This document shows, piece after piece, positions 1-54,610 of a stretch of 64,000 bases of DNA. How positions within the stretch are numbered: position 1 is the stretch's first letter; every line of letters starts with the position of its first letter. A program made the position numbers and the translations under genes. This DNA comes from Hyphomicrobiales bacterium (lineage in GTDB: Bacteria > Pseudomonadota > Alphaproteobacteria > Rhizobiales > UBA4765), in contig OZ252015.1 in NCBI GenBank assembly GCA_965247525.1, positions 592,110 through 656,109 of the forward strand, read 5' to 3'. The notes below the pieces were generated by a model. It searched no databases, was not told the DNA's origin, and was given only the letters and a program-made list of their open reading frames with translations.

Positions 1-36
1 GATCGCTTGTTGCGCTTGCTGCTGGCCGACCAATAG
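1..36 (+). CDS. possible 3' end of an upstream CDS cut by the window edge (...DRLLRLLLADQ*)
   Basis: Frame 1 is open from nt 1 to TAG at 34-36 and is GC-rich like the housekeeping genes. Composition turns AT-rich immediately after it. Too short to identify. Confidence 0.25.
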   Translation, partial: DRLLRLLLADQ

Positions 37-80
37 CGGAATTAGATCAAAAGATTATTGAACATTTTCACGAAGGCAAA

Positions 81-1169
81 TTGCAAGTTGTCGATAAAGT
101 TGAAATGCATGAAGGCTTTGATTTAGTGCAAGATCAGCAAACCGTAATAATCGAATGTGACATCTATCTATCTGAAAAGAAAACATCAGTTAGAAAAAAT
201 TTAAGTATCATGCACATGTCCATGATGAGCGGTGTTAATGGATTAATATCAGCAATTAACGGCGCACCCTTTCTTTTAAACGGCAGCCAAATTCAGCATC
301 ACGCGACGCCTTTTCCATTCGTAGTTGGTCGCGAGCTTTTTTCGCCATTATATATTGGACAAACAGAAAAGCAGGAAATTTATATTTCTAAAAATTTCGG
401 TTCTTATGAAAATGTAATTGTTTTAGCAGGTCTTTCTGACAACTATTTTCATTTTCTATTTGATATTCTTGGTACATTGGCATTCATTAAACGAGAGATT
501 TGGGAAAAATCAAGATTCCTTATTTTTGGCGAAAGCTTAAAACCTTTTCAAAAAGATCTTTTGCGCCGCATCGGGATTGAAGATAATCGCGTTGACCTTG
601 CACCAAGAGGAAATCATTTTGTCTCTGTTCGCAACGCAACAGTAACGAGCTATCCAGCATCGCACACGGTAGCACATCCCGAGGTTGTTCGCTTTTTGCG
701 CGCTGAACTTTTACCTGTTGCTAAGTCAATAAAGCAGGGAAAGCGTGTTTACTTTGTACGCAAGAAGTCACGCGCATTTTCTTTATATGACCGAGGCAAA
801 ATCGATGCTTTGATGAAGCGTTATGGATTTATCTCATATGATCCGGCCACAATGACTATTCAAGAACAGATCGACGCAATATGTGATGCAGAAGTTATTG
901 CACTTGATGCGGGTGCCGCCGCAGCCAATCTCATCTTCGCATCGCAAAATGCTAAAGTCATTGTGATGGGAACTTCTGTTCTTGCTTTTTATGAAGCTTG
1001 GGGCTGCCTTTCTAATGTTCTTCAACTCGATTTAAGCTATGTGATGTCGCAAACTCGAATATCACCAAAATATTTACTCGTGTGGTGTGACTTCAAACCA
1101 AAAGCAGATATAAAAACCCTTGAAGTATGCTTAAGAGAGAAATGCGATGACGTTCGCCAAGCAAAATAA
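81..1169 (+). CDS. GT61/DUF563-like glycosyltransferase (capsule/LPS biosynthesis type)
   Basis: 362-aa ORF with a TTG start in the track (ATG alternative at 105). DNYFHFLFDILGTLAFI and the C-terminal GFISYDP..MTIQEQID....EVIALDAGAAAANLIFA resemble the DUF563/GT61 signature. The same frame has no stop back to nt 3, so the start is uncertain. Very AT-rich. Confidence 0.6.
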   Translation: MQVVDKVEMHEGFDLVQDQQTVIIECDIYLSEKKTSVRKNLSIMHMSMMSGVNGLISAINGAPFLLNGSQIQHHATPFPFVVGRELFSPLYIGQTEKQEIYISKNFGSYENVIVLAGLSDNYFHFLFDILGTLAFIKREIWEKSRFLIFGESLKPFQKDLLRRIGIEDNRVDLAPRGNHFVSVRNATVTSYPASHTVAHPEVVRFLRAELLPVAKSIKQGKRVYFVRKKSRAFSLYDRGKIDALMKRYGFISYDPATMTIQEQIDAICDAEVIALDAGAAAANLIFASQNAKVIVMGTSVLAFYEAWGCLSNVLQLDLSYVMSQTRISPKYLLVWCDFKPKADIKTLEVCLREKCDDVRQAK

Positions 1170-1195
1170 ATGTCGATTACAAAAGTGATGATATC

Positions 1196-2110
1196 ATGAG
1201 TTGGAAAAAACTTGGCTGTGTATTTAATTGTCAACAAATATCCAACTGGCAGAACAGTCATGCTTATGTTCCAACTACTCTGACCCTACCAGACCGAATA
1301 CGCGTTTACATCGCCTTTCGTGATGCAGAAAATATAGGGCGTATTGGCTTTGTTGATATTGATCTAGATAATCCAATGCGCGTTCTCGGTGTTTCGGAAA
1401 ATCCCTGCTTAGACATTGGGCCACTCGGCGCATTTGACGATAGTGGGATGACGCCTTTATCAGTTATAAAAAACGAGGATGAAATTTGGCTTTATTATGC
1501 CGGCTGGCATCTTTCCCAGACGGTGCGCTATCATCTTTTTACCGGCCTTGCCATCAGTTTGGATGGAGGAATAAATTTTAAAAGGCATAGCAATGTTCCT
1601 GTTCTTGACAGAACAGAACAAGCTTGGCTTGTGCGCTCTGGCGTGTGTGTTCTTAAAGATGGCGAAACATGGAAATGCTGGGGTGCGACTGGATCTGAAA
1701 TGATTGAAATTGATGGCAAAAAGATTCCGACCTATGACTGGAGTTACATCGAAAGCAAAGACGGTATTTCATGGCCTCCCCATCACAAGGTTGCGATATT
1801 TAAGGACATTGATCATGGCATTACCGGATATGGACGCTCTCATGTTTTCAAAGAAAATAATATTTATAAAGCGTGGATACCGGTGCGCACTTACAAAGGC
1901 TACCAAAGTATAGGCTATTCCGAGTCATCTGATGGCCTAAATTGGTCTGAGCTTGAATACAAAAATGGACTTTTTCCTTCAGTGGATGGGTTTGATTCAA
2001 AAGAAGTTTGTTTCCCCAACGTGTTCGATGTAGGAGCGCGCCGTTACATGGTCTATAATGGCAACGACTTCGGCAAAACAGGTTTCGGACTGGCGCTATG
2101 GCAGGACTGA
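1196..2110 (+). CDS. beta-propeller glycosidase/phosphorylase-like protein (GH32/43/130-like fold), family unresolved
   Basis: 304-aa ORF with recurring aromatic beta-strand motifs (IWLYYAGW, TWKCWGATG, YKAWIPV, YMVYNGND) typical of 5-bladed propeller carbohydrate enzymes. It sits between a GT and an ABC-2 exporter. Confidence 0.4.
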   Translation: MSWKKLGCVFNCQQISNWQNSHAYVPTTLTLPDRIRVYIAFRDAENIGRIGFVDIDLDNPMRVLGVSENPCLDIGPLGAFDDSGMTPLSVIKNEDEIWLYYAGWHLSQTVRYHLFTGLAISLDGGINFKRHSNVPVLDRTEQAWLVRSGVCVLKDGETWKCWGATGSEMIEIDGKKIPTYDWSYIESKDGISWPPHHKVAIFKDIDHGITGYGRSHVFKENNIYKAWIPVRTYKGYQSIGYSESSDGLNWSELEYKNGLFPSVDGFDSKEVCFPNVFDVGARRYMVYNGNDFGKTGFGLALWQD

Positions 2111-2952
2111 ACGTGCGTGGCACAGATTTAAAGCTTGATCGGAGCATTACTCCAAGGTCGCGTTTTAACGGAGCGGCTGAGGACCTTATTTGCGGGCTTG
2201 CTCTCTGGCACTCATGGGGTACCAAAGCCTGGTACGATATTATTTTACGCTATCGCCGCACTGTCATCGGTCCGTTTTGGATGGTGTTAACGACAGGTTT
2301 AATGATTGCTTGTCTATCCCTGATCGCACCGGCTTTGTTTGGCGGCGGCAATGCCAATTTTATACCTTATCTGACGATCGGCCTGATTAGCTGGAATTTT
2401 CTGTCCTTAAGCATAAGTGAACTTTCTGCGACATTTATCGAGCAAGGCAACGAAATACGCAATGTGCGTTTGCCCTTTTCAATTTATGTTTACAGAATTA
2501 TTCTTCGCAACATTATCAGTTATGCTCATCTTCTAACGCTGTATCTGATTGTTGCAATCTATTTTAAAATTTTTGCCTTGTCTTACATCCCGCTGTTTAT
2601 CGCTGGGCTTTTGCTCGTTGTTTTAAATTTTGTGTGGGTTGGCTTTGTTCTTGGTACACTTTGCGCGCGTTATCGTGACATTCAACAGGTTGTAGGCTCG
2701 GTCCTCACCATCGGCTTTCTTTTAACGCCGGTATTTTGGGACAAAACCCTTTTGCTTGGCACAGGTGCGCGCAGCCTGGTCGTACATCTCAACCCGTTGG
2801 CGCATATGCTTGAAATTTTGCGGGCGCCACTTCTTGCACAGGTTCCGTCTTGGGAGCATTACGCGTTTTTGATCGGCAGCGTTGTTTTAGGCTTTCTACT
2901 CATGGCATTTTTATATGCCAAAAAAATGCGCCGTGTGGTGTTGTGGATATGA
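2098..2952 (+). CDS. ABC-2 type polysaccharide/O-antigen export permease (Wzm/KpsM-like)
   Basis: 284 aa with about 6 hydrophobic helices. The N-terminal YRRTVIGPFWMVL motif matches ABC-2 permeases. Its stop overlaps the ATPase start (ATGA at 2949-2952). Confidence 0.75.
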   Translation: MAGLNVRGTDLKLDRSITPRSRFNGAAEDLICGLALWHSWGTKAWYDIILRYRRTVIGPFWMVLTTGLMIACLSLIAPALFGGGNANFIPYLTIGLISWNFLSLSISELSATFIEQGNEIRNVRLPFSIYVYRIILRNIISYAHLLTLYLIVAIYFKIFALSYIPLFIAGLLLVVLNFVWVGFVLGTLCARYRDIQQVVGSVLTIGFLLTPVFWDKTLLLGTGARSLVVHLNPLAHMLEILRAPLLAQVPSWEHYAFLIGSVVLGFLLMAFLYAKKMRRVVLWI

Positions 2953-3713
2953 CACCTGCATTGACGGTCGTTGCCGAGAACGTGTCACTCAGCTATCCGG
3001 TTTATGGCGGACCGCAAATGACACTGCGTGGAATGATAGCCGACCGGCTGTATTTCAAGGGTCGCGCAAAAACACCCAAACATGTGGCCGCCTTGAAAGA
3101 TATCAGCTTTGAAACGTTCAAGGGCGACCGCGTCGCATTGATCGGTCCCAATGGTGCAGGAAAATCTACCTTGTTGCGCCTTATCAGTGATATTTATCAA
3201 CCCGACTTAGGAAAACTCAATCATTTCGGTACTGTCCTTCCCCTTCTTGGTGCGCTACCGGGCATTAGCAGCGACGCCAGCGGTTATGAAAATATCAAAT
3301 TGGCTGTGTATTCGATCGGTCTGGCCCGCGACAGGCTTGCGGATGTCATTGCCGAGGTCGAGGAATTTTCCCAGCTGGGCGATTTCCTGTCGCTACCCCT
3401 CAAAACCTATTCGTCCGGTATGGTGGCACGCTTGTTTTTCGCTGTCCTGACATCGCTGACTGCGGATATTTTTGTGATGGATGAATTTTCTTTCGCAACT
3501 GGCGATGCTTCATTCAAGGAGCGCGCCCAAAAGCGCGCACGAAACCTTTTGGAGCGCGCAAGTACAGTGTTCATTGCAAGTCATGACAGTGATCTTTTAC
3601 GTAATACCTGTAACAAGGCGATCTATCTAAAAAATGGAACGCTGGCCGCATTCGGACCTTTCGAAGATGTTTTACGCGACTATGAAAAAGACATTGCTGC
3701 ACAGCATGGTTGA
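2949..3713 (+). CDS. polysaccharide export ABC transporter ATP-binding protein (Wzt/TagH/KpsT-like, short form)
   Basis: Walker A GPNGAGKST, signature YSSGMVARL, Walker B IFVMDE. Start chosen at the internal ATG coupled to the permease stop. No C-terminal glycan-binding extension. Confidence 0.85.
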   Translation: MTPALTVVAENVSLSYPVYGGPQMTLRGMIADRLYFKGRAKTPKHVAALKDISFETFKGDRVALIGPNGAGKSTLLRLISDIYQPDLGKLNHFGTVLPLLGALPGISSDASGYENIKLAVYSIGLARDRLADVIAEVEEFSQLGDFLSLPLKTYSSGMVARLFFAVLTSLTADIFVMDEFSFATGDASFKERAQKRARNLLERASTVFIASHDSDLLRNTCNKAIYLKNGTLAAFGPFEDVLRDYEKDIAAQHG

Positions 3714-4704
3714 TTTTGCTGAAAACAGCCCTTTGGTCAGCATTGTCATTCCAACTTACAATCAGGAAAATTTTATTGCCGAAGCAATCGGCGGTGCCTT
3801 GCGGCAGACTTACCGCAACCTTCAGATCATCGTTGCTGACGATGCTTCAATCGATGAAACGCTCAATCTGGCAAAAGATTTTGCATTGCGTGACACGCGC
3901 GTTGAAGTTCTTGAAACAACACAAAATCTGGGTATTACCAACAATGCCCGCCGCTGCGTGCCCTACATCAAAGGAAAATACGTCGTCTGGTTTGCCGGCG
4001 ACGATGTCATGTATCCGCAAAAAATCGCGCGGCAGGTTGAAGCGCTGGAAGGTGATAGCCGAGCTGCGCTGTGCTACCATAACACATCCGTTTTCGACAG
4101 CGCGCGCACTCAAGTCTTGTTCAGCTACAACGACTGGCTTATCGGCCAACGTGCTTTCGAGGGCGATATCGTCGCACCACTTCTGCTCTACAGATGTTTT
4201 ATTTCCGGCACATCTGCCATGGTTCGCGCCTCCTGCATGTGCCTGCATGATCCGCGCATTGCCGCGGCAAGCGACTGGCTGATGTTCATTGAAACAGCAC
4301 GACAAGGAGCGACGATCTATATACCGGAAATTCTCGGCGCGTATCGTCGGCACGCCGCAAATGTCACGGCGCGAAAACCATGCACGCGCGAGGAAATGCT
4401 GACCTATGACATTGTTGGTGCGCAAATGCCGCAGATGGAAAATGCCATTGCACGCGGCAAGGCACGCATGCTGCTAAATTACGGGTTCAAATATCTCTTG
4501 AAAGGCGACCTGAAAGCGTCGGCTGGATCGTTAATGGAAATGCTTATTTTAATAAGAGAAAAACCTGACATGTGTTTTTTCCTGATACGGTCATTCGGTG
4601 CAGCGTTTTTAAAAACAATATTGATGCCTTTATCGCCTTATTTTTTACGGCACCGACGCGCCAGCATGTATCTCAAGCGTTATCTTGACACATTAAAAGA
4701 ATGA
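3706..4704 (+). CDS. family 2 glycosyltransferase
   Basis: VSIVIPTYNQENFIAEAIGGALRQTYRNLQIIVADDASID is the classical GT2 N-terminal motif. The ATG at 3706 overlaps the ATPase stop by 8 nt. Confidence 0.85.
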   Translation: MVDFAENSPLVSIVIPTYNQENFIAEAIGGALRQTYRNLQIIVADDASIDETLNLAKDFALRDTRVEVLETTQNLGITNNARRCVPYIKGKYVVWFAGDDVMYPQKIARQVEALEGDSRAALCYHNTSVFDSARTQVLFSYNDWLIGQRAFEGDIVAPLLLYRCFISGTSAMVRASCMCLHDPRIAAASDWLMFIETARQGATIYIPEILGAYRRHAANVTARKPCTREEMLTYDIVGAQMPQMENAIARGKARMLLNYGFKYLLKGDLKASAGSLMEMLILIREKPDMCFFLIRSFGAAFLKTILMPLSPYFLRHRRASMYLKRYLDTLKE

Positions 4705-5878: not shown

Positions 5879-6736
5879 TTAAAAAGTATCGAGCCGGAGC
5901 ATCTGGCGCAGTTCAAGCGGTGTCATGACGCCGCGCCCATTCATGTCAGCAAAACCAATAGCCCGCTGAACAAGCTGCTCGTTGGTCGCGCAGGATGTGC
6001 CGTTCTGATCCAACCAAAGATTGTCTTCAAGGCCCGTGCGCACGCCATCTGCAACTATCGCGCCAAGTGCTGTCATGGACCGTTGTGTCCTGCCGGTTCC
6101 ACCCAGGCTGTAAAACGTGCCTTCAGGCAATGCCGAAATCACAGCGGAAATACTCAAAAGATCGGACTGTGCTGACGCAATGTTGCCAAAGATCAGATTG
6201 GCATAATGTGGCGGCTTGCAACCAAGTTTACTAATCAAATACGCCATGTAATTTGCCATGCCGAGATCAAAAATCTCAAATTCAGGGCAAATGCCCTTGT
6301 CGTGCATGGTTTCGATAAGCCGCAAAATCATATCGGGCGAATTGATGCTGGCTTGCTGTGAAAAATTGATGGAGGACGGGGTGAGAGACGCCATATCCGG
6401 CTTCAGGTCTCCGGTCAGCTGCAACACATCGGAGCGTTCCGCAAATGTGATATGGCTTCTGCCCGAACATGAAACGCAAATAAGAAGGTCTGACCTGTGC
6501 GTCCTGATACCTTCTATGATCTGCGCATAAATTTTCCGATCACAGCTTGGAAAGCCTTCCGCGCTTCGGGCGTGAAGATGCGCAATGGTGACACCAAGCT
6601 CGGCGGCGCGCAGCACATCTTTGACAATTTCTTTGGGCGTCAACGGGACATGCGCACTTATCGCACGCGTTGGCACCATGCCGGTGGGCGCAAGATTGAT
6701 GATCAAGGGCGCAGTCTTGGGCACGACCTTTGTCAT
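5879..6736 (-). CDS. beta-keto acid cleavage enzyme family protein (BKACE, DUF849; 3-keto-5-aminohexanoate cleavage enzyme-like)
   Basis: 285 aa. IINLAPTGMVP...PLTPKEI..DV..AAELGVTIAHLHAR, PDMASL, PEFEIFD and GVRTGLEDNLW follow the DUF849 TIM-barrel pattern. Confidence 0.75.
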   Translation of the reverse strand: MTKVVPKTAPLIINLAPTGMVPTRAISAHVPLTPKEIVKDVLRAAELGVTIAHLHARSAEGFPSCDRKIYAQIIEGIRTHRSDLLICVSCSGRSHITFAERSDVLQLTGDLKPDMASLTPSSINFSQQASINSPDMILRLIETMHDKGICPEFEIFDLGMANYMAYLISKLGCKPPHYANLIFGNIASAQSDLLSISAVISALPEGTFYSLGGTGRTQRSMTALGAIVADGVRTGLEDNLWLDQNGTSCATNEQLVQRAIGFADMNGRGVMTPLELRQMLRLDTF

Positions 6737-7424: not shown

Positions 7425-7500
7425 TGGTGGGTGATGTAGGGCTCGAACCTACGACCCGGTGATTAAGAGTCACCTGCTCTACCAACTGAGCTAATCACCC
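7425..7500 (-). tRNA. tRNA-Lys (anticodon CUU)
   Basis: The reverse complement folds as a 76-nt cloverleaf: GGGTGAT-TA-GCTC-AGTTGGTA-GAGC-A-GGTGA-CTCTTAA-TCACC-GGGTC-GTAGG-TTCGAGC-CCTAC-ATCACCC-A-CCA. The CCA is encoded. Confidence 0.95.
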
Positions 7501-8573: not shown

Positions 8574-9476
8574 TCATCCTCGTATTTGTTGCAAAATTTC
8601 ATCCGCTGACATTTGCGGCCAGTGCTTCATCTGTGTCCGAAACCATGTGTCCTGTCGCTTGGAGTAATGGCGCGAGGCCAATATAGCAGCTTCACTCGCG
8701 TCATCGCGGGAAATATCCCCGCGAAGATGGCTTAAAAGCTCGGGAACGCCAATCGCTTTCATCACAGGCATGTCTGCAGCAAGCTTTCGCGCCGCCAGCG
8801 CCTGCACCTCTTCAATCGCTCCTTCATCGATCATTGCATTAAAGCGTTTTGTGATGTTCTTACTGCGTTGTTCGCGGTCGCTGCGCAAAACCACACAAAG
8901 CCAGTTGTCGGGGCTGATCAGCGGTTTGGATTTTTCCTTGTGCCAATCTTGAAGTGAACGGCCGGTTGCCTCAAAAACCTCCAAAGCCCGCACCAGTCTT
9001 TGCGTGTCATTGACTTGCAAGCGCAATGCCGTTTCAGGGTCAATTTCTTTTAACCGTGCATGCAGTACAGACGCTTCTATATCTTGCGCTTCATGCCGCC
9101 ATTTTTGCCGGATTGCATCAGGGATATCAGGAACAGGCGACAGTCCTTCAAAAAGCGTGCGAAAATAGAGCCCGGTTCCGCCTACTAAAATTGGCGTTTT
9201 AATGCGGGCGATTTCTGCGCTGGCCTGCTTTGCCCATTCCGCTGCTGAAAAAGCGCAAGCACCGTCGACATGGCCATATAAAATGTGGAGCGCGCTTGTC
9301 TCATCTTTTGAGGACGGGCGCGCGGTAAGAAGGCGAAGATCGGCATAAACCTGCGCGCTGTCGGCATTAATGATGCTGCCACCTGTCCGCTTTGCAAGTT
9401 CAAGAGCCAGCGCTGACTTGCCGGATGCAGTTGCGCCTGCAATAGCAATACCACAATAAGGAATTTGGCTTGTCAT
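8574..9476 (-). CDS. miaA: tRNA dimethylallyltransferase
   Basis: P-loop GATASGKSALALELA, then INADSAQVY, GGTGLYF and the characteristic central and C-terminal helices. Confidence 0.9.
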   Translation of the reverse strand: MTSQIPYCGIAIAGATASGKSALALELAKRTGGSIINADSAQVYADLRLLTARPSSKDETSALHILYGHVDGACAFSAAEWAKQASAEIARIKTPILVGGTGLYFRTLFEGLSPVPDIPDAIRQKWRHEAQDIEASVLHARLKEIDPETALRLQVNDTQRLVRALEVFEATGRSLQDWHKEKSKPLISPDNWLCVVLRSDREQRSKNITKRFNAMIDEGAIEEVQALAARKLAADMPVMKAIGVPELLSHLRGDISRDDASEAAILASRHYSKRQDTWFRTQMKHWPQMSADEILQQIRG

Positions 9477-18569: not shown

Positions 18570-18886
18570 TGGCTTGCCAGCTATGGCGATAAACGACCGT
18601 TGCAATAAATCATTCGGACCCGGGGGCAGTACCCGGCGCCTCCACCACTCTCCCCGTTACCGGGAAGTGTTGCGGGGGCGAAACAGGCTTCGACGAAGGT
18701 TGAAAAGGCGTCTCTTTTGCTCGGCATTGTTCCGCCGTTATCGGGCTGTTTTAGAAATGCAAACGATAACTTTGCAGGACACTCAAACGTAGCTAACGCT
18801 GCTTAGTAAGTATCCACCAAAGCCCTAGGGATTTGCATCCTTAGGCGGGGTTCGGAGGCACCTGGCAACAGAAGCCTCCACTTTTC
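18570..18886 (+). ncRNA. ssrA: tmRNA (ssrA), circularly permuted two-piece type
   Basis: The acceptor piece ends CCGGG-GGCAGTA-CCCGG-CGCCTCC-A-CCA at 18620-18647. After 26 nt the coding piece starts GGGGGCGAAACAGGCTTCGACG at 18674. GGGGGCG pairs with CGCCTCC, including the G3:U70 alanine identity pair. The tag ORF at 18759-18803 encodes ANDNFAGHSNVANAA, followed by TAG TAA. A hairpin at 18854-18879 is followed by TTTT. The 5' boundary is approximate. Confidence 0.85.
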
Positions 18887-19000
18887 ATAATTATTTTGTC
18901 CCCTGTTTATATAAGGCACCGCTTCACAAGACCGTTTGCGGATTGTATCTGATTGAATCTTCGCCCACACTAAAGGCGTGATTCACCCCGAAAGGCTGAC

Positions 19001-19633
19001 ATGACCGAGGATATGATCCGTTACGACCTCTTGGCGCAGGAAGCCTTGCGCGGTGTCGTCAAAAAAGTTCTGCAAGATACCGCAAAGGGCGGCCTTCATG
19101 GCGAGCATCATTTCTATATCGCCTTTGATACCAATTATGCAGGGGTCAGACTGTCGCAGCGCCTGCGCGAGCAATATCCGAACGAAATGACCATTGTCTT
19201 GCAGCATCAGTTCTGGGATTTAACCGTTAGCGACCACGCGTTTGAAGTGGGTCTGTCCTTTGGCAATGTGCCCGAGCGCTTGGTTATTCCTTATGACGCC
19301 ATCAAGGGGTTCTTTGATCCCTCGGTGCAGTTTGGCCTTCAGTTTGAAATCATCGATCTTGATGATGAAAATGCCGAAGACGACAGTGCCGGTGAAGAAG
19401 ACGGACAAGACAATATCGAAGGCAGCGACAATATCCCTGCCGGCAAAGCGAAAAAGCCCGTTAAAGGCAAGACCAAAAAACTGGCAGCAAAAGCGCCAGA
19501 AGGAACCGGCACGGATGTCGCGCAGATGACGCCCAAAGCAAAACCAGCGAGCGGTAAAAAAGGCGATACGCCGCCAGATGGCCCAGGCGCTGAAGTCGTA
19601 AGCCTTGATAAGTTTCGCAAACCTAAAAATTAA
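19001..19633 (+). CDS. sspB: alpha-type SspB, ClpXP adaptor for ssrA-tagged proteins
   Basis: [13 protein letters not shown]...HHFYIAFDT...[16 protein letters not shown]...[11 protein letters not shown] matches the alphaproteobacterial SspB fold region. A long acidic/basic linker leads to a C-terminal [11 protein letters not shown] ClpX-binding-like tail. Confidence 0.8.
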
Positions 19634-19638
19634 ACCCG

Positions 19639-21027
19639 ATGAGCACACGTACAGAAACGGATACATTCGGCGCGCTTGAGGTCGAATCCGATCGCTATTG
19701 GGGTGCACAATCACAGCGCAGTCTTGGCAATTTCAAAATTGGCTGGGAAAAGCAACCGACCGCGATGATCCGCGCTTTTGGCATCGTTAAACGCGCCGCA
19801 GCTGAAACCAATATGGAACTTGGCCTGCTTGATCCGCAGATTGGCCGCGCCATTGTTGCGGCTGCGACCGAGGTGATGGAAGGAATGCTCGACGCGCATT
19901 TTCCGCTTGTTGTCTGGCAGACAGGGTCCGGCACTCAAACCAATATGAACGCCAATGAAGTCATTTCAAACCGGGCGATTGAAATGCTTGGCGGCGAGAT
20001 GGGCTCTAAAAAACCTGTTCATCCAAACGACCATGTGAACATGTCGCAGTCGTCGAATGACAGTTACCCAACGGCTATGCACATCGCCGCCGCTGAAATG
20101 GTGGCGCACCAGCTTTTCCCCGGTCTGGCGCATCTTGAAAAAGGCCTTCGCGACAAGCAAAAAGCCTTTGCTGAAATTATCAAAATTGGCCGCACCCACA
20201 CGCAAGATGCAACACCGCTGACATTAGGGCAGGAATTTTCTGGCTATGTCGCTGCTGTTCACCGCGGCATCAGGCGTATCAAGGCGACGCTTGACGATGT
20301 GTACGCGTTGGCGCAGGGCGGCACGGCTGTCGGCACGGGCCTGAACGCGCCGAAAGGCTTTGCTGAAATGTTCGCACAAAAAGTCGCGACGATTACAAAG
20401 CTGCCATTCATCAGTGCTGACAATAAATTTGAGGCGCTTGCCTCGCATGGGGCATTGGCTTTTATGCACGGCGCGCTGGCCTCGCTTGCTGCCGACATGT
20501 TCAAAATTGCCAATGACATCCGTTTTCTCGGCTCTGGCCCGCGCTCCGGTCTTGGTGAGTTGATCTTGCCTGAAAACGAACCCGGTTCGTCAATCATGCC
20601 TGGCAAAGTCAACCCAACACAGGCCGAAGCGTTGACGATGGTGTGTGCGCAGGTCATAGGCAATGAAACCACCGTAACTTTTGCCGCAAGCCAAGGCCAT
20701 TTTGAACTTAATGTGTTCAAGCCTGTTATTGTCTACAATGTGCTCCAATCCGTCCAGCTTCTGGCCGATGCGGCGCGCAGCTTTCAGGACCATTGCGTTG
20801 CGGGCATTGAAGCAGATACCAAACGCATTGCCTTGCTGATGCAGCAATCTTTGATGCTGGTAACAGCCCTTGCGCCGCATATCGGCTATGACAATGCTGC
20901 AAAAATCGCCAAGACAGCACATAAAAACGGCACGACATTGCGCGATGAAGCGGTCAAGTCCGGCCTTGTCAATGACAATGATTATGACCGTATCGTCGAC
21001 CCGACAAAGATGATCGGCCCGTCCTGA
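19639..21027 (+). CDS. fumC: class II fumarate hydratase
   Basis: 462 aa. [13 protein letters not shown] signature, [23 protein letters not shown]. Confidence 0.95.
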
Positions 21028-33446: not shown

Positions 33447-33703
33447 AGTGTTGCTACCCGCTCATAGAGCCGTATTCTTGGCATAAAAGCACATCACAAA
33501 CCGCAACATATTGTTACAATCTTTAGACCAAGACCTTGAAAAAGCAGGGTTTTGCGTAACAGAGGCTCTTAATCGAAGAGTTATCCACCAGACAGTTGTT
33601 TTGGAAAAGAATGCAAGCGTCCCAATCTTTAATACGTGCAATACATCTTGCGTTTTTATTTGAAATTTGTTTAATCGCCTCATATTTTTATTGGATATTG
33701 ACA

Positions 33704-34732
33704 ATGCCGGATAACGCCAAATCTTTTGCCATTCAGGGTCTCACAGGAACAGGACTAGTTGGGTTAGGCACCCTTGCCTATCGCAGAGGGTTTTCACTGC
33801 GCAGCCACCAAACGCTTGTCGTTCAATTGGCCCATCAACTCGCAAGCCAGCCTGTTTTAAAGTGTGAGCCGGTAGATATCCATGAAGCCGTTAAAACCCG
33901 CAAAGGCTCAATATTTGATCTTGTTGATCCTCTCAAAGGCAAATCGCTTAAAGCTGCAAGGCGCGATCCAACAGGATTTTTTGCCGAACGATTTAAAGAG
34001 CACAAAGACGCCCATCTAGCGCGGTCGGCTTGGCTGTATAAATCTGAAAACAAGATTGGTCTTGAAATCGCCAGGCCTTTTGACTTGCCAGATTTGAATG
34101 CGACGATGACAAAAACCGAACGTCTTGCAGCACTCAAAGACGGGCAGATCAACGGTATTTATTCACGCAGCCATACAATGCTTGGCGATAGTTTTCATCG
34201 AATTGAATTTGAAGACGATTACAGACCTTATGATCTCAAAACCGCATTAGGAAAATCTGATTTTGATACCAGATTTCCCACCCATGACATTTTTGCAGAA
34301 CTTCAAACTGACATGCCCGTTCATGTTTCAAAAACACCATCACATATCACCAGCAGCACAATCAGTAATACGATTGAAACATTTAAAGAGGATGTCGCAG
34401 AGCTGCAACGTGCAGATCCTCAATGGAAACCGTTTCTTTCAATAGATGAGGCGTTTGACATGCCCGCAGATGCCAAAGCTCATTTAAGCGTTGTTTCAGA
34501 TGCAATTGATAAAATGAAATTAAAAACCAAAAATGTCTTGAGTGATATTTCGTTGAATGAATTTAAGCTTCGCGAGATTAATCTTAGCGAGCTGAAAGGC
34601 TTCAGAAAATTTTTCAAAACGCCCGAAACGTGGATGATTGGTGGCGCTGTCGCGATTGCTGCAGGTCTTGGTCTTGGTGTTTATGCTGGTTACAATCTTC
34701 TCAAAACGAGTGATGAATCTTCGCAAGATTAA
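33704..34732 (+). CDS. hypothetical protein with N- and C-terminal hydrophobic segments (orphan)
   Basis: AT-rich ORF; the track ORF starts at 33596 and the first convincing ATG is 33704. Hydrophobic FAIQGLTGTGLVGLGTLAY near the N-terminus and WMIGGAVAIAAGLGLGVYAGYNLL near the C-terminus. No domain recognised. Confidence 0.55.
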   Translation: MPDNAKSFAIQGLTGTGLVGLGTLAYRRGFSLRSHQTLVVQLAHQLASQPVLKCEPVDIHEAVKTRKGSIFDLVDPLKGKSLKAARRDPTGFFAERFKEHKDAHLARSAWLYKSENKIGLEIARPFDLPDLNATMTKTERLAALKDGQINGIYSRSHTMLGDSFHRIEFEDDYRPYDLKTALGKSDFDTRFPTHDIFAELQTDMPVHVSKTPSHITSSTISNTIETFKEDVAELQRADPQWKPFLSIDEAFDMPADAKAHLSVVSDAIDKMKLKTKNVLSDISLNEFKLREINLSELKGFRKFFKTPETWMIGGAVAIAAGLGLGVYAGYNLLKTSDESSQD

Positions 34733-34783
34733 CTTGTGTTTAGCATGTGGCCCGCATGGCCAATCTTTTACCCATATGCAAAG

Positions 34784-34808
34784 ACACCGGACACAAGGCC
34801 CGGTGTTT
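34784..34808. terminator. candidate bidirectional hairpin terminator between the convergent orphan gene and ftsZ
   Basis: ACACCGG-acacaaggc-CCGGTGT followed by TTT on the + strand and CTTT on the - strand. Confidence 0.4.
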
Positions 34809-34829
34809 GAATAAGGTTGAATAAAAGAC

Positions 34830-36491
34830 TTACGGGTTGTTACGGCGCAGGAAGGCCGGAATCTCCAGATAGTCGTCATCTTGCGAACGGGGCTGCGGTG
34901 CCGGTGCACGTGGGGCCAGTTGCTCGCTGTAATCGCGGCGGGCGACAGCCTGTTCGGCTGGCAGACGACGCTGCTCATTCTGGCCCGTGCGCGCGATCGG
35001 CGGGGCTGCAACGCGAGGCATCTGGAAGCTTGGCTCGGAACGTTCTTCGCTTTGCATTTCGTCCTCGGCATAGCGGCTTTTGCCAAACCCAAGCGCGGCG
35101 AGACGGTCACGAAGACCAGCGCGTTTTTCTTCGACATGCGGAACCGATTGCGGTGCATCGCTGCGTGCCGCTTCAATCTGGCGCTGTGCAACTTGCGGCA
35201 AATCTTCGATGCGCGGCATGCGCTGGCTGCGCGTGTCTGGGCGTGCCGGCTCAGGCGGAATGAAGCTGGTCTGCACAGGCTCATAACTTGGTTCGGCAAA
35301 TTGCGGCTGTTCCTGCACCGGCGATGATGGTGTGATCGGACGGATCATAACGTCTGGGTCCGAAAAGCTTGGCGCAGAGGCTTTTGGCTCTTCATACTGC
35401 GGCTGGAATGTTTCAGTCTGTGGTTCAAGTGTCGACTGGATTGAGACTTGTGGTGTGGCATAGCCAAGGCGTTGGCGCTGGTTATGCTCAAGCGAGCTCA
35501 GCGGCGCTGTCGATTTTGACGACATCGAATTGTCGATGCCTGTTGCAACAACCGACACACGGATGATGCCCTCTAAGCTATCGTCATAAGTTGCGCCGAC
35601 AATGATGTTGGCTTCCTGATCGACTTCTTCTCTGATGCGTGTGGCCGCTTCATCAAGTTCATAAAGCGTCATGTCGCGGCCGCCGGTGACTGAAATCAGC
35701 AGGCCACGTGCGCCCTGCATTTCAACATCATCAAGAAGCGGGTTGGAAATGGCAGCTTCTGCAGCGCGGATGGCGCGGTTTTCGCCCGAGGATTCGCCCG
35801 TGCCCATCATGGCTTTGCCCATTTCGCGCATCACGGAGCGCACGTCGGCAAAATCAAGATTGATGAGACCTTCTTTGACCATCAGGTCGGTGATGCAGGC
35901 AACACCTGAATAAAGAACCTGGTCAGCCATGCCGAACGCATCGGCAAAAGTGGTTTTTTCATTGGCGACGCGGAAAAGGTTCTGGTTCGGGATGACGATA
36001 AGCGTATCGACCATTTTCTGCAGTTCTGAAATACCTGCATCGGCTGTGCGCATGCGCTTCACGCCTTCGAAATGGAATGGTTTGGTGACAACACCGACAG
36101 TCAAAATGCCCATTTCTTTTGCGACGCGCGCGATTACCGGCGCTGCGCCTGTGCCTGTGCCGCCGCCCATGCCCGCGGTGATGAACACCATATGCGCGCC
36201 GGAAAGGTGGTCACGGATTTCTTCGATTGTTTCTTCAGCAGCTGCGCTGCCAACTTCCGGGTGCGAGCCTGCACCAAGACCTTCGGTGACAGCAACGCCC
36301 ATCTGCACGATGCGCGCGGCACGCGAGGCTGCAAGTGCCTGACTGTCCGTGTTGCCGACGATGAAATCGACACCTTCCATGCCAGCAGAAATCATATTGT
36401 TGACGGCGTTGCCACCTGCTCCACCGACACCGAAGACCATCAGGCGTGGTTTCAACTCGGTGATGTCCGGCACTTTGAGATTGATCGTCAT
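34830..36491 (-). CDS. ftsZ: cell division protein FtsZ (long C-terminal linker)
   Basis: ATG at 36491 is preceded by [19 protein letters not shown], the tubulin signature [11 protein letters not shown], a long P/Q/E-rich linker, and the conserved C-terminal [12 protein letters not shown] peptide. The track start at 36566 runs into intergenic repeats. Confidence 0.95.
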
Positions 36492-36524
36492 GTTACCCTC
36501 TATGCTTATCAAAAGCGGCAATTT

Positions 36525-36537
36525 GCGCGGGGCGCTC
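36525..36537. repeat. inverted copy of the core of the 36-bp B repeat (GCGCGGGGCGCTC)
   Basis: Exact reverse complement of GAGCGCCCCGCGC present in B1 (36706-36718) and B3 (36777-36789). It lies 34-46 nt upstream of the ftsZ ATG on the coding strand. Confidence 0.8.
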
Positions 36538-36552
36538 ATGCCTTTACGCTCT

Positions 36553-36614
36553 GGCAGTCCGGGCAAGCCCTCATGCCGTAATCCAATGGCAGTTCGGGCA
36601 AGCCCTCGTGCCGT
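36553..36614. repeat. two direct copies (A1, A2) of a 27-bp element GGCAGTYCGGGCAAGCCCTCRTGCCGT
   Basis: A1 at 36553-36579 and A2 at 36588-36614 differ at 2 of 27 positions. Confidence 0.9.
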
Positions 36615-36700
36615 TACCCATCAAAATGCACTGATCTGGTGGATACTTGGTTAATTTTCGAATGATGATGAGGCTTAACAAGTTTTTATTTGGCTGCTCG

Positions 36701-36799
36701 CGCCCGAGCGCCCCGCGCGAATGGCGCAAAAGAAACCGTCCGAGCGTCCCGCGCGAATGGTGCATAAAAAACGCCCGAGCGCCCCGCGCGAACGGCGCA
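36701..36799. repeat. three tandem copies (period 35-36 bp) of CGYCCGAGCGYCCCGCGCGAAYGGYGCA
   Basis: B1 36701-36728, B2 36737-36764, B3 36772-36799. Each contains an internal GCGCC...GGCGC hairpin. Confidence 0.9.
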
Positions 36800-36833
36800 T
36801 AAAGCAAGCCAAGTTCTCGTGTGTTTTTTAATA

Positions 36834-36857
36834 GGCAGTTCGGGCAAGCCCTCGTGC
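36834..36857. repeat. third copy (A3) of the A element, immediately after the ftsA stop codon
   Basis: GGCAGTTCGGGCAAGCCCTCGTGC is identical to A2 over 24 nt. Confidence 0.9.
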
Positions 36858-36859
36858 TT

Positions 36860-38173
36860 TTAAAAACTTTCGCGAATCCAGGAGCTCATACGGGACATAT
36901 AACCGTCAGTTCCTGTCATCAGCTGGCGCATACGGCGCGGCTCGATCTGTTCGATCTGCGCAATCTGCGGATAAATCGTAAGACCGAAGACAGAGGCAAA
37001 GGCAGGGCCTTTTGCAGCTTCAGGGAGGCTTGAGACACCCAGCGGACGACCGATGCGGACCTGACGCCCGAAAATACGGCGGGCAACTTCGCCAAGACCT
37101 GTCAGCTGCGATGCGCCGCCCGTCAAAACCACGCAACGCCCGGCTTGGCTTAGCAAATTGCTGGCTTTCAGCTTGTCGCGGACAATTTCAAGAATTTCTT
37201 CAACACGCGGGCGAATGATGCGCACCAGATGCGAGCGTGGGATTTGGTTTTGCTCATGCTCATCGCCGACCTGCATGATGTTGAGAAACTCATGCTCGTC
37301 CGATGGGCAAGGCAGAGGCGAGCCATGCAGGGTTTTCAACCGCTCTGCATGCTGGATGGGTGTCGAAAGCCCCATCGCAATATCTGTTGTGATGTGGTGG
37401 CCACCAACAGGCACGCTGTCGGCATGGACAAAACGCCCGTTCTGGAACACCGCAAGACTTGTCGTGCCGCCGCCGCAGTCAACCACGCAGGCGCCAAGCT
37501 CGGCCTCATCATCGACAAGAACGGATAGGCCGCTGGCATAAGGCGTTGCCACAACCGCATCGACATGAAGGTGGCAGCGTTCAATACACAAAACGATGTT
37601 ACGGATGGGCGCGCTGTCGGCGCTGACCACATGCATGTCAACGCCAAGATTTGCCCCAAGCATGCCGCGTGGGTCGCGAATGGCCGTTGCGTCATCAAGC
37701 GTAAAACCGACAGGCAGAGAGTGCACAACGCTGCGGCCTTCGCGCAGAGAGTGGGCAGAGCCCGCTTCTAACACGCGGCGGATGTCGATGTCTTCAACTT
37801 CATGGCCGTCGATTGCGACAGAAGCGGCATAGGCTTCCGATGTCAGGCGGCCTGCGGACACATTAACAATTAGGCTTTCAACTGTGAGTCCGGACATGCG
37901 TTCAGCGGCATCGACGGCAAGGCGGATCGATTGCTCTGCCGCATCCATATCAACGATAAGGCCAGACTTGATACCGCGTGCGCGGTGGTGGCCAAAGCCG
38001 ACAAGGTCAACCGTATGAGTGCGGTTTGGCAGCATCTGGTTTTGCTCAACCGGACGAAGACGCGCGATGGCGCAGACAATTTTCGATGAACCGATATCAA
38101 GCACGGTTACTGTTGTCGCCCTTTTGGGTGATAACGGTTTCAACCGGCTGTTCTTGCGGAGAAGGGAACTCAT
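36860..38173 (-). CDS. ftsA: cell division protein FtsA
   Basis: 437 aa, actin-like ATPase. LDIGSSKI, VDCGGGTT, GGASQL.G. Confidence 0.95.
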   Translation of the reverse strand: MSSLLRKNSRLKPLSPKRATTVTVLDIGSSKIVCAIARLRPVEQNQMLPNRTHTVDLVGFGHHRARGIKSGLIVDMDAAEQSIRLAVDAAERMSGLTVESLIVNVSAGRLTSEAYAASVAIDGHEVEDIDIRRVLEAGSAHSLREGRSVVHSLPVGFTLDDATAIRDPRGMLGANLGVDMHVVSADSAPIRNIVLCIERCHLHVDAVVATPYASGLSVLVDDEAELGACVVDCGGGTTSLAVFQNGRFVHADSVPVGGHHITTDIAMGLSTPIQHAERLKTLHGSPLPCPSDEHEFLNIMQVGDEHEQNQIPRSHLVRIIRPRVEEILEIVRDKLKASNLLSQAGRCVVLTGGASQLTGLGEVARRIFGRQVRIGRPLGVSSLPEAAKGPAFASVFGLTIYPQIAQIEQIEPRRMRQLMTGTDGYMSRMSSWIRESF

Positions 38174-54191: not shown

Positions 54192-54610
54192 ATATCCAGT
54201 CGGCCTGTAAGCCGGGTTCTGTTCGCCTGTGTTCGCTGAATTTGGATACAGCATTCAAAAGCGTGGCAGCCATTCATCTCATCTGCCTTTTACAAGACAG
54301 TTCTAGCAACCGACCCGGACAGCGCACCGGAAACGGTGTTGGATCGCATGAAGCAAGCCAATGCTGTCCCTATTTGGTTTTGCTCCCGGTGGGGTTTGCC
54401 ATGCCACCTCTGTTACCAGAGGCGCGGTGCGCTCTTACCGCACCTTTTCACCCTTACCACCCCTGCCCGAAAGCTTGAATGGCGGTTCCTTCTCTGTGGC
54501 ACTGTCCCTGGGGTCGCCCCCGCCGGACGTTATCCGGCACCGTTGTTTCCTGGAGCCCGGACTTTCCTCGAGAACTTGCGCCCTCGCGGCTGCCCGGCCG
54601 ACTGGATCAG
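54192..54610 (-). ncRNA. rnpB: RNase P RNA (type A)
   Basis: The reverse complement contains the universally conserved GAGGAAAGTCCGGGCTCC (+ strand 54551-54568) and ACAGAACCCGGCTTAC (+ strand about 54210-54227). The P1 helix is formed by CCAGTCGGCC (5') and GGCCGACTGG (3'; + strand 54596-54605 and 54196-54205). Ends are accurate to within a few nt. Confidence 0.9.

Follow-up and report, generated by a model that had tools for sequence, protein, structure and literature searches.

What kind of element fills the spacer between the genes ftsA and ftsZ in an uncultured alphaproteobacterium, and does it belong to that junction or has it come there as a mobile repeat? The question is raised by a stretch of 64,000 nucleotides, hereafter called the window, from contig OZ252015.1 of a Hyphomicrobiales bacterium (GenBank assembly GCA_965247525.1), in which the ftsA-ftsZ spacer (36492-36859, 368 nt) is occupied by short repeats. 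FtsZ and FtsA are required in a fixed ratio from adjacent genes, by a mechanism that is largely unknown outside Escherichia coli, Bacillus and Caulobacter. A sequence-only reading of the window had described two repeat families and an inverted core in the spacer, and had offered two explanations: a repeat-based RNA switch ahead of ftsZ, or an element resembling repetitive extragenic palindromic (REP) sequences or miniature inverted-repeat transposable elements (MITEs). The analysis reported here revealed a single family of hairpins that is restricted, in the DNA available, to the ftsA-ftsZ junction, with one 25-mer identical across species. The preferred reading is that of a cis-acting RNA element.

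The spacer and its repeats

Both flanking genes lie on the minus strand. ftsA (36860-38173, 437 aa in the open reading frame list) ends in the stop codon TAA at 36860-36862, and the identical product in another metagenome assembly of this species (L001) was found to give Pfam FtsA/SHS2_FTSA matches. ftsZ (34830-36491, 553 aa) starts at the ATG at 36489-36491 with the Shine-Dalgarno sequence AGAGGG at 36496-36501, so that the start region covers 36489-36501. This ribosome-binding site (RBS) and the MTINLK start are kept in all relatives, which rules out that FtsZ extends N-terminally through the repeats. Among named organisms, the closest FtsA matches come from Hyphomicrobiales, for instance Kaistia and Mesorhizobium, at ~63% identity; contigs of the lineage are ~2 Mb long.

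The three copies of the A repeat reported earlier, at 36553, 36588 and 36834, were borne out with 0-1 mismatch to the earlier consensus, where shuffled sequences lead to an expectation of zero. The third, however, had been placed 3 nt from the ftsA stop codon; the distance is 1 nt, and the first base is A, not G. The tandem B array was also recovered, with units at 36701, 36737 and 36772, and was delimited by TRF as 36701-36804 (period 35-36, 2.9 copies, 81-85% matches). A and B are the top two repeat families across the whole window. L001, which shows 98.8% nucleotide identity to the window over the locus, carries the array with the same copy numbers. Five positions distinguish the two arrays: three fall in the A2-A1 linker, the other two are internal-loop pyrimidines, and the stems and B are unchanged. 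Because this independent assembly contains the same array, the array is not an assembly artefact. The spacer had no match in Rfam at the gathering threshold, nor at E <= 10 with permissive filters.

One family of hairpins

What had been taken for two repeat families and an inverted core is a single family of 25-26-nt hairpins. Each unit, read 5' to 3', is composed of an outer stem of 4 bp, the letters YGA, an inner stem of 4 bp, a loop of 2-3 nt, the second arm of the inner stem, the letters RRAY and the second arm of the outer stem. The A unit reads GGCA-CGA-GGGC-TT-GCCC-GAAC-TGCC, and the B unit, on the plus strand, CGCC-CGA-GCGC-CCC-GCGC-GAAT-GGCG. The inverted B core described earlier does exist (36522-36537), but as part of a whole hairpin, A0, rather than as a fragment; A0 combines the outer stem of A with the inner hairpin of B. 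The B core has three plus-strand matches and this one inverted match, and the complementarity reaches 17-24 nt at 83-90%.

A covariance model of the family, R1, assigned 30-39 bits to seven copies in the window, the next best score in the 64 kb being 14 bits (E = 0.22). Four copies are sense with respect to the mRNA and lie on the minus strand. A3 (36834-36858, AGCA-CGA-GGGC-TT-GCCC-GAAC-TGCC, 31.3 bits) adjoins the ftsA stop codon, and the other three stand in tandem with a 35-nt period before the ftsZ RBS: A2 (36588-36612, GGCACGAGGGCTTGCCCGAACTGCC), A1 (36553-36577), which on the mRNA is 35 nt 3' of A2, and A0 (36517-36542, GGCA-TGA-GCGC-CCC-GCGC-AAAT-TGCC, 38.1 bits), which is 35 nt past A1 and ends 25 nt before the ATG. 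Three further copies are antisense to the mRNA, with the family sense on the plus strand and a period of 35-36 nt: B3 (36772-36797, CGCC-CGA-GCGC-CCC-GCGC-GAAC-GGCG, 39.1 bits), B2 (36737-36762, 31.3 bits) and B1 (36701-36726, 38.8 bits). B2 is weakened by three C-to-T changes, which give G:U pairs on the plus strand and A.C mismatches on the mRNA strand. A-rich linkers follow the sense units, as they do the B units when these are read on the plus strand.

The structure itself is well supported. A structural descriptor gave exactly seven matches in the window, all seven in the spacer, against a chance expectation of 1.8 per 64 kb under a first-order Markov model of the window. In a structure alignment of 12 distinct copies, with N placed in the 2-nt loops, 96.9% of the stem cells were paired, compared with 7-48% in slid-partner controls. 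Compensatory double changes were observed in three of the eight pairs (GGGC/GCCC to GCGC/GCGC; GGCA/TGCC to AGCA/TGCT to CGCC/GGCG). The YGA/RRAY letters of the internal loop were kept alongside the stems in A, A0, B and the relatives' copies.

Several other identities were tried and rejected. A clustered regularly interspaced short palindromic repeat (CRISPR) array is ruled out by spacers of only 9-10 nt, and the B array is not the A2-A0 array copied together with its linkers, since the linkers differ. A sigma-54 promoter (TGGCAC-N5-TTGC, GG-N10-GC) was discarded because GGCACGAGGGCTTGC has the spacing GG-N11-GC, and A0 and B have no TTGC. A kink-turn was set aside on a reading of the letters: the internal loop is 3 x 4 (YGA/RRAY), and a possible tandem G.A would leave 1 and 2 unpaired nt on the two strands, whereas a kink-turn has a 3-nt bulge on one strand and nothing unpaired opposite.

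Comparison across relatives

The spacers of related species differ in length and content. The outgroups L037 and L039 (FtsA 72-74%) have 45 nt and no element. In L019, L021/22 and L034 the spacer is 29-61 nt long, with a hairpin bearing an AGGATCC loop after the stop codon and no A copy. In L035 and L036 the AGGATCC hairpin is followed by one A copy and then by the RBS; in L006 one A copy comes first, and the AGGATCC hairpin stands between it and the RBS. L020 contains at least two tandem A copies directly past the stop codon, with GCGC/GCGC as the inner stem, and its contig breaks inside them. L017, of the same genus, has a 334-nt spacer with A-type copies at the A2 and A0 positions and no B, and the sister species L018 has 500 nt with other palindromes and no A. 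Copy number thus varies by species, being 1, 2 or 7. The module is absent in four of the ten species-level lineages of the clade (L018, L034, L021/22 and L019), and relatives without it have another hairpin directly past the ftsA stop codon.

The window, L006 and L020 each have a copy 1-2 nt past the ftsA stop codon, and a copy precedes the ftsZ ATG by 17-25 nt in the window, L017, L035 and L036; outside the window species every copy is mRNA-sense and occupies one or the other of these positions. The B array is absent from all other species examined, including L017. The eye-catching array is probably a young, species-specific expansion.

Two comparisons bear on constraint. L017 shows ~84% nucleotide identity to the window and 53% at four-fold sites; it is not a close strain, and the differing upstream half of its spacer is therefore attributed to ordinary divergence. 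The downstream half can be aligned, with A2 and A0 as positional orthologs, and at these two positions the inner stems are swapped between the window and L017 (GGGC/GCCC for GCGC/GCGC and vice versa) with pairing kept. The second comparison is more distant. The 25-mer GGCACGAGGGCTTGCCCGAACTGCC, which is A2 in the window, is identical (25/25) in L006, L035 and L036, whose ftsA four-fold sites match those of the window at 36-42%, a saturated level, and one another at 49-61%. This points to purifying selection on sequence and shape, or else to recent transfer.

Carriers were found in both sub-clades of the ftsA tree. In the window, copies flank both sides of a segment that possibly matches the relatives' AGGATCC hairpin, and an ancestral two-copy arrangement with differential loss is for this reason the simplest account; repeated gain of the module is a possible alternative to a single origin with losses.

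The AGGATC(C/A) hairpin directly past the ftsA stop codon is a second conserved spacer element in its own right. It was located at 11254-11290 in L019, 11318-11345 in L021, 2804-2835 in L034, 1723-1752 in L035, 1607-1636 in L036 and 7360-7385 in L006. Its stems covary (GCATC/GATGC, GTATC/GATAC, GCAAC/GTTGT), and its GGAUCC loop is self-complementary and occurs also in the last ftsA codons (TGG ATC CGC).

Locus-bound or dispersed?

Is the family a resident of one junction or a sample of a dispersed population? In ~114 kb of the relatives' DNA (11 related loci), R1 copies were found solely in ftsA-ftsZ spacers, and the R1 scan of the window gave no copy outside the spacer; the window amounts to ~3% of the species' 2.04-Mb genome, and for this species the dispersal result covers that share. 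An exact scan for the A core in one genome per species, covering 185,579 species, returned 15 single matches, 14 of them unrelated or in coding DNA. The remaining match belongs to the lineage: it is in the metagenome-assembled genome (MAG) JAZKID01 (L006), 2 nt past the ftsA stop codon, and is the sole copy in that assembly. No genome in this exact scan contained a multi-copy A-core family. Among JGI metagenomes, a degenerate family pattern gave 11 matches, none of which adjoins ftsA or ftsZ and all of which are taken as chance. In IMG/VR viral contigs A had no match and B one chance match without the outer stem, and blastn of the whole spacer against PLSDB gave matches at chance level only.

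Five of the 11 JGI matches represent one unrelated locus (L025 1550-1574, L026 4603-4627, L030 8285-8309, L031 8482-8506 and L033 427-451). They carry GGCATGAGCGCTTGCGCGAATTGCC or a close variant just 5' of an apparent response-regulator gene in an unrelated organism of higher GC content. The likeness was put down to chance, and the sequence may run into the end of the gene upstream.

A dispersed family does exist in the clade. L018 contains REP-like palindromes of the form CCTCCCCCC-N4-GGGGGGAGG at no fewer than five intergenic sites in 18 kb, one of them its ftsA-ftsZ spacer (41-79, 5969-6005, 9314-9381, 14327-14421 and 16107-16153, with flanks of the GGGTTAGGGTGGGGG type). The A/B family behaves unlike it. 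The REP/MITE alternative was accordingly right about form, as the units are short imperfect palindromes in both orientations and in tandem clusters, but not about dispersal, wherever this was scanned.

Terminator-like B units and a candidate ftsZ promoter

Between the two groups of copies, and within the B array, lie features that may bear on transcription. On the mRNA strand, B3 forms a hairpin of -11.2 kcal/mol with U6 directly after it, B2 forms one of -5.7 kcal/mol followed by GUUUCUUUU, and B1 (~-11 kcal/mol) is followed by no U-tract. B3 and B2 may be at most weak or leaky intrinsic terminators.

The unique AT-rich segment at 36613-36700 (minus strand) is common to L017 and L018 and lies just upstream of A2-A0. 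It contains TTAACC (36649-36654), GTATCCACC (36638-36646) and a hairpin CAC-CAGATCA-GTG (36629-36641), the last a possible remnant of the clade's AGGATCC hairpin. The block may be the proximal promoter of ftsZ. Its TTAACC, similar to a CtrA half-site, and GTATCCACC, similar to a DnaA box, are resemblances only, but may mark a cell-cycle-regulated ftsZ promoter. A sigma-70 consensus scan of the spacer gave no mRNA-strand match and thus no support for a promoter in the block.

A proposed cis-acting hairpin module

The reading favoured here, with moderate confidence, is that the family represents a locus-bound, lineage-restricted cis-acting RNA hairpin, serving mRNA stability, processing or translation, that was amplified in this species. 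The sense hairpin would act as an RNA element of ftsQAZ transcripts. At the ftsA stop codon, the copy would serve as a mark or a protection for the 3' end of RNA that ends with ftsA; it may also slow terminating ribosomes and possibly shape termination-coupled translation of ftsA. The 5' portion of the ftsZ message would be stabilised or delimited by the copies lying immediately before the RBS, and both positions would jointly help to set the FtsZ:FtsA ratio. In the window species, amplification would have produced three tandem sense copies before the RBS and the inverted triplet B1-B3 in the ftsA-proximal half, where leaky termination at B3 and B2 could precede a separate promoter for ftsZ. 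The complementarity between A0 and B would then be a by-product of inverted duplication. What the analysis shows is the unity of the family, its structure with compensatory changes, its restriction to the locus in the DNA available, the identity across species and the confinement of B to one species; action at the level of RNA, the mechanism on stability or translation, the terminator activity and the promoter position are inferred. Recognition of the hairpin by some factor is suggested by the exact conservation of YGA/RRAY, which a passive barrier would not need.

Several observations weigh against this reading. Single hairpins are weak, at -6 to -11 kcal/mol, with z values against shuffles near 0. 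A terminator consensus scan of the spacer gave no mRNA-strand match and did not call B2 or B3; the scan requires at least five uninterrupted pairs, and the B stems are broken by 3x4 internal loops. Being antisense, the B copies cannot fulfil this RNA role on the mRNA. The identity of the 25-mer across lineages could be explained by lateral transfer or gene conversion. The absence of the module from four of the ten lineages indicates that it is dispensable, and the small share of the genome that the window covers leaves room for a low-copy dispersed family.

The moderate preference for a cis-acting module is set against three alternatives. The first, which is regarded as unlikely, is that the 25-nt hairpin with its YGA/RRAY letters is the titratable site of a trans-acting regulator of FtsZ synthesis, a protein or a small RNA. 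Copy number (1, 2, or 4 sense plus 3 antisense) would tune the response, and in this species the plus-strand B array would in addition be transcribed as an antisense decoy RNA or form alternative A0:B helices. It would explain why loop and internal-loop nucleotides are conserved and not the stems alone, and why the B units keep the whole unit, including the A-rich 3' tail, on the plus strand. All three changes in B2 are G:U-compatible on the plus strand only; however, three one-strand C-to-T changes have a chance probability of ~1 in 8. The spacer in E. coli yields the cis-antisense RNA StfZ (PMC9628754), and the decoy logic is comparable with that of CsrB/RsmZ and StfZ. On the other hand, a consensus scan showed no promoter-like plus-strand site near the B array, no candidate binding factor emerged, and B is species-specific.

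The second alternative, considered quite unlikely, is a selfish or neutral DNA element of the REP type, the bacterial interspersed mosaic element (BIME) type or the MITE type, spread by a transposase (a REP-associated tyrosine transposase (RAYT) or one like IS200/IS605) or by slippage, and accumulated in a tolerant spacer. The form of the copies, short imperfect palindromes in both orientations with clusters at 35-36 nt, agrees with this, as do the variation in copy number between species, the patchy phylogenetic distribution and the placement relative to the conserved AGGATCC hairpin, which differs between L006 and L035/36. L018 moreover carries genuine dispersed REP-like palindromes in the same spacer, and the L020 contig breaks within tandem copies. 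Yet the searches described above placed no copy outside the spacers in the window or in the relatives' DNA, a single exact copy in the L006 MAG, no multi-copy genome in any of the species scanned and none in the plasmids or viral contigs searched. No target-site duplication was found, A2 and A0 occupy orthologous positions in different species, and the 25-mer is 25/25 identical across lineages with saturated neutral sites. A MITE was tried separately and rejected: B3 and A0 can be read as 24-nt inverted ends, but L017 keeps the A0 and A2 positions without B, and there is no exact flanking duplication.

The third alternative, the repeat-based RNA switch, was the main proposal of the sequence-only reading: in a read-through ftsA-ftsZ mRNA, A0 would pair with B1, B2 or B3, and these exclusive helices would govern ftsZ translation or processing. 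A0 can indeed pair with B: when the full-length leader (401 nt) was folded, A0 was predicted to pair with B3 (16.5 bp expected), with the helix present both in the minimum free energy structure and in the ensemble; the duplex energies of A0 are -43.9 kcal/mol with B3, -42.5 with B1 and -29.0 with B2; and the fold of the leader is somewhat more stable than those of shuffled sequences (z = -2.07, 3/100). Other results go against a regulatory switch. The pairing with B2, said to proceed through a G:U, involves an A.C mismatch on the mRNA strand (the G:U arises on the plus strand only), with a duplex of -29 rather than -43 kcal/mol. The predicted unpaired probability of the Shine-Dalgarno sequence is 0.43 with the B array and 0.41 and 0.38 without it, and the A0:B helix ends at least 15 nt away. 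Complementarity follows automatically because the B units are inverted copies of A0's own hairpin family, and B exists in one species only, the relatives' A copies having no B partner. Co-transcriptional folding would favour local hairpins and B:B pairing, and B would lie outside the main ftsZ mRNA if the ftsZ promoter is in the AT-rich block. With B confined to one species, complementarity inherent and Shine-Dalgarno exposure unchanged, the long-range helices are treated as a by-product, and a switch is considered very unlikely.

Other features of the window and its relatives

The opposite end of ftsZ differs between genomes as well. A low-GC insertion (33447-34829) separates ftsZ from lpxC in the window and is absent from L017; it contains a plus-strand open reading frame (33596-34732, 378 aa), convergent with ftsZ, that has no Pfam, NCBIfam or PADLOC match. 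A terminator-like hairpin for ftsZ lies at ~34785-34810 (CACCGG...CCGGTG, then TCTTTG). In L019, a gene with a Phage_Mu_F domain and an unannotated open reading frame are inserted between ftsZ and lpxC (13708-14559). These insertions in the window and L019 suggest that the junction is a recurrent insertion point. Elsewhere in the division and cell wall (dcw) cluster, a glutamine amidotransferase (PF00117) gene lies between murC and murB in L017 (6392-7099), L018 (3858-4568), L019 (6375-7085), L021 (6339-7094) and the window (~40.1-41.8 kb).

The window also encodes a two-piece (permuted) alphaproteobacterial transfer-messenger RNA (18529-18882, plus strand), a class A RNase P RNA (54192-54605, minus strand) and one tRNA (7428-7500, minus strand). 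GC content is 44-46% in the bins 1-4000 and 16001-20000, compared with ~52-57% elsewhere.

Comparison with known systems

How does the module relate to what has been described at this junction and at others? In E. coli, ftsQAZ is controlled by multiple promoters inside ftsQ and ftsA and by DicF. The junction is the same and so is the need to set FtsZ:FtsA post-transcriptionally, but the E. coli spacer has 60 bp without repeats and shows no sequence or structural similarity to the present one. The FtsZ/FtsA ratio there is maintained by RNase E, according to Tamura 2006 as cited in PMC10064930. The Caulobacter ftsZ promoter is under CtrA, DnaA and CcrM control (PMC3708114). Similarly, CtrA- and DnaA-box-like motifs occur here in the block upstream of A2-A0; they are resemblances, however, and not part of the repeats. 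The literature search revealed no earlier description, for alphaproteobacteria, of a repeat or hairpin element in the ftsA-ftsZ spacer.

Intercistronic hairpins are known from other operons. The hairpins between pufA and pufL of Rhodobacter capsulatus and the REP sequence between malE and malF of E. coli are barriers to 3'-5' decay and processing landmarks. As in those cases, the hairpins here stand between operon cistrons needed in unequal amounts. The difference is that the upstream cistron is the abundant one there, whereas the downstream product, FtsZ, should be so here, and the repeats here are multiplied and partly inverted. Intrinsic terminators offer a partial likeness: on the mRNA strand, B3 and B2 are GC-rich hairpins followed by a U-rich tract, in the same style as the window's terminator-like ftsZ hairpin, but the B stems, interrupted by 3x4 internal loops, attain no more than -6 to -11 kcal/mol, and B1 lacks a U-tract.

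If the hairpin is merely passive, it would add modestly to the known intercistronic stabilisers. If recognition by a trans-acting regulator is true, it would be a cell-division control element without a described counterpart. A hairpin kept letter-exact while neutral sites were randomised gives an uncultured lineage a concrete candidate for post-transcriptional control that can be tested.

The closest formal likeness is to REP elements and BIMEs, which are imperfect palindromes of 20-40 nt in intercistronic or 3' positions in enterobacteria and pseudomonads; REP hairpins can stall ribosomes just upstream of a termination codon, can protect upstream mRNA when they lie beside a stop codon or between cistrons, and are linked to mRNA stability (PMC12306157). 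The units described here are likewise extragenic stem-loops, of 25-26 nt with a common consensus, in both orientations and clustered with short linkers. REP elements, however, occur as tens to hundreds of dispersed copies per genome, in contrast to a single spacer here and one copy in the L006 MAG, and here an identical sequence is kept at the orthologous locus across species. Overall, the element is classified as a palindrome cluster of REP/BIME-like form that is nevertheless locus-bound, selected, intercistronic and amplified in one species. REP-like palindromes may thus be locus-bound and selected, not only dispersed, which bears on how such repeats are classified.

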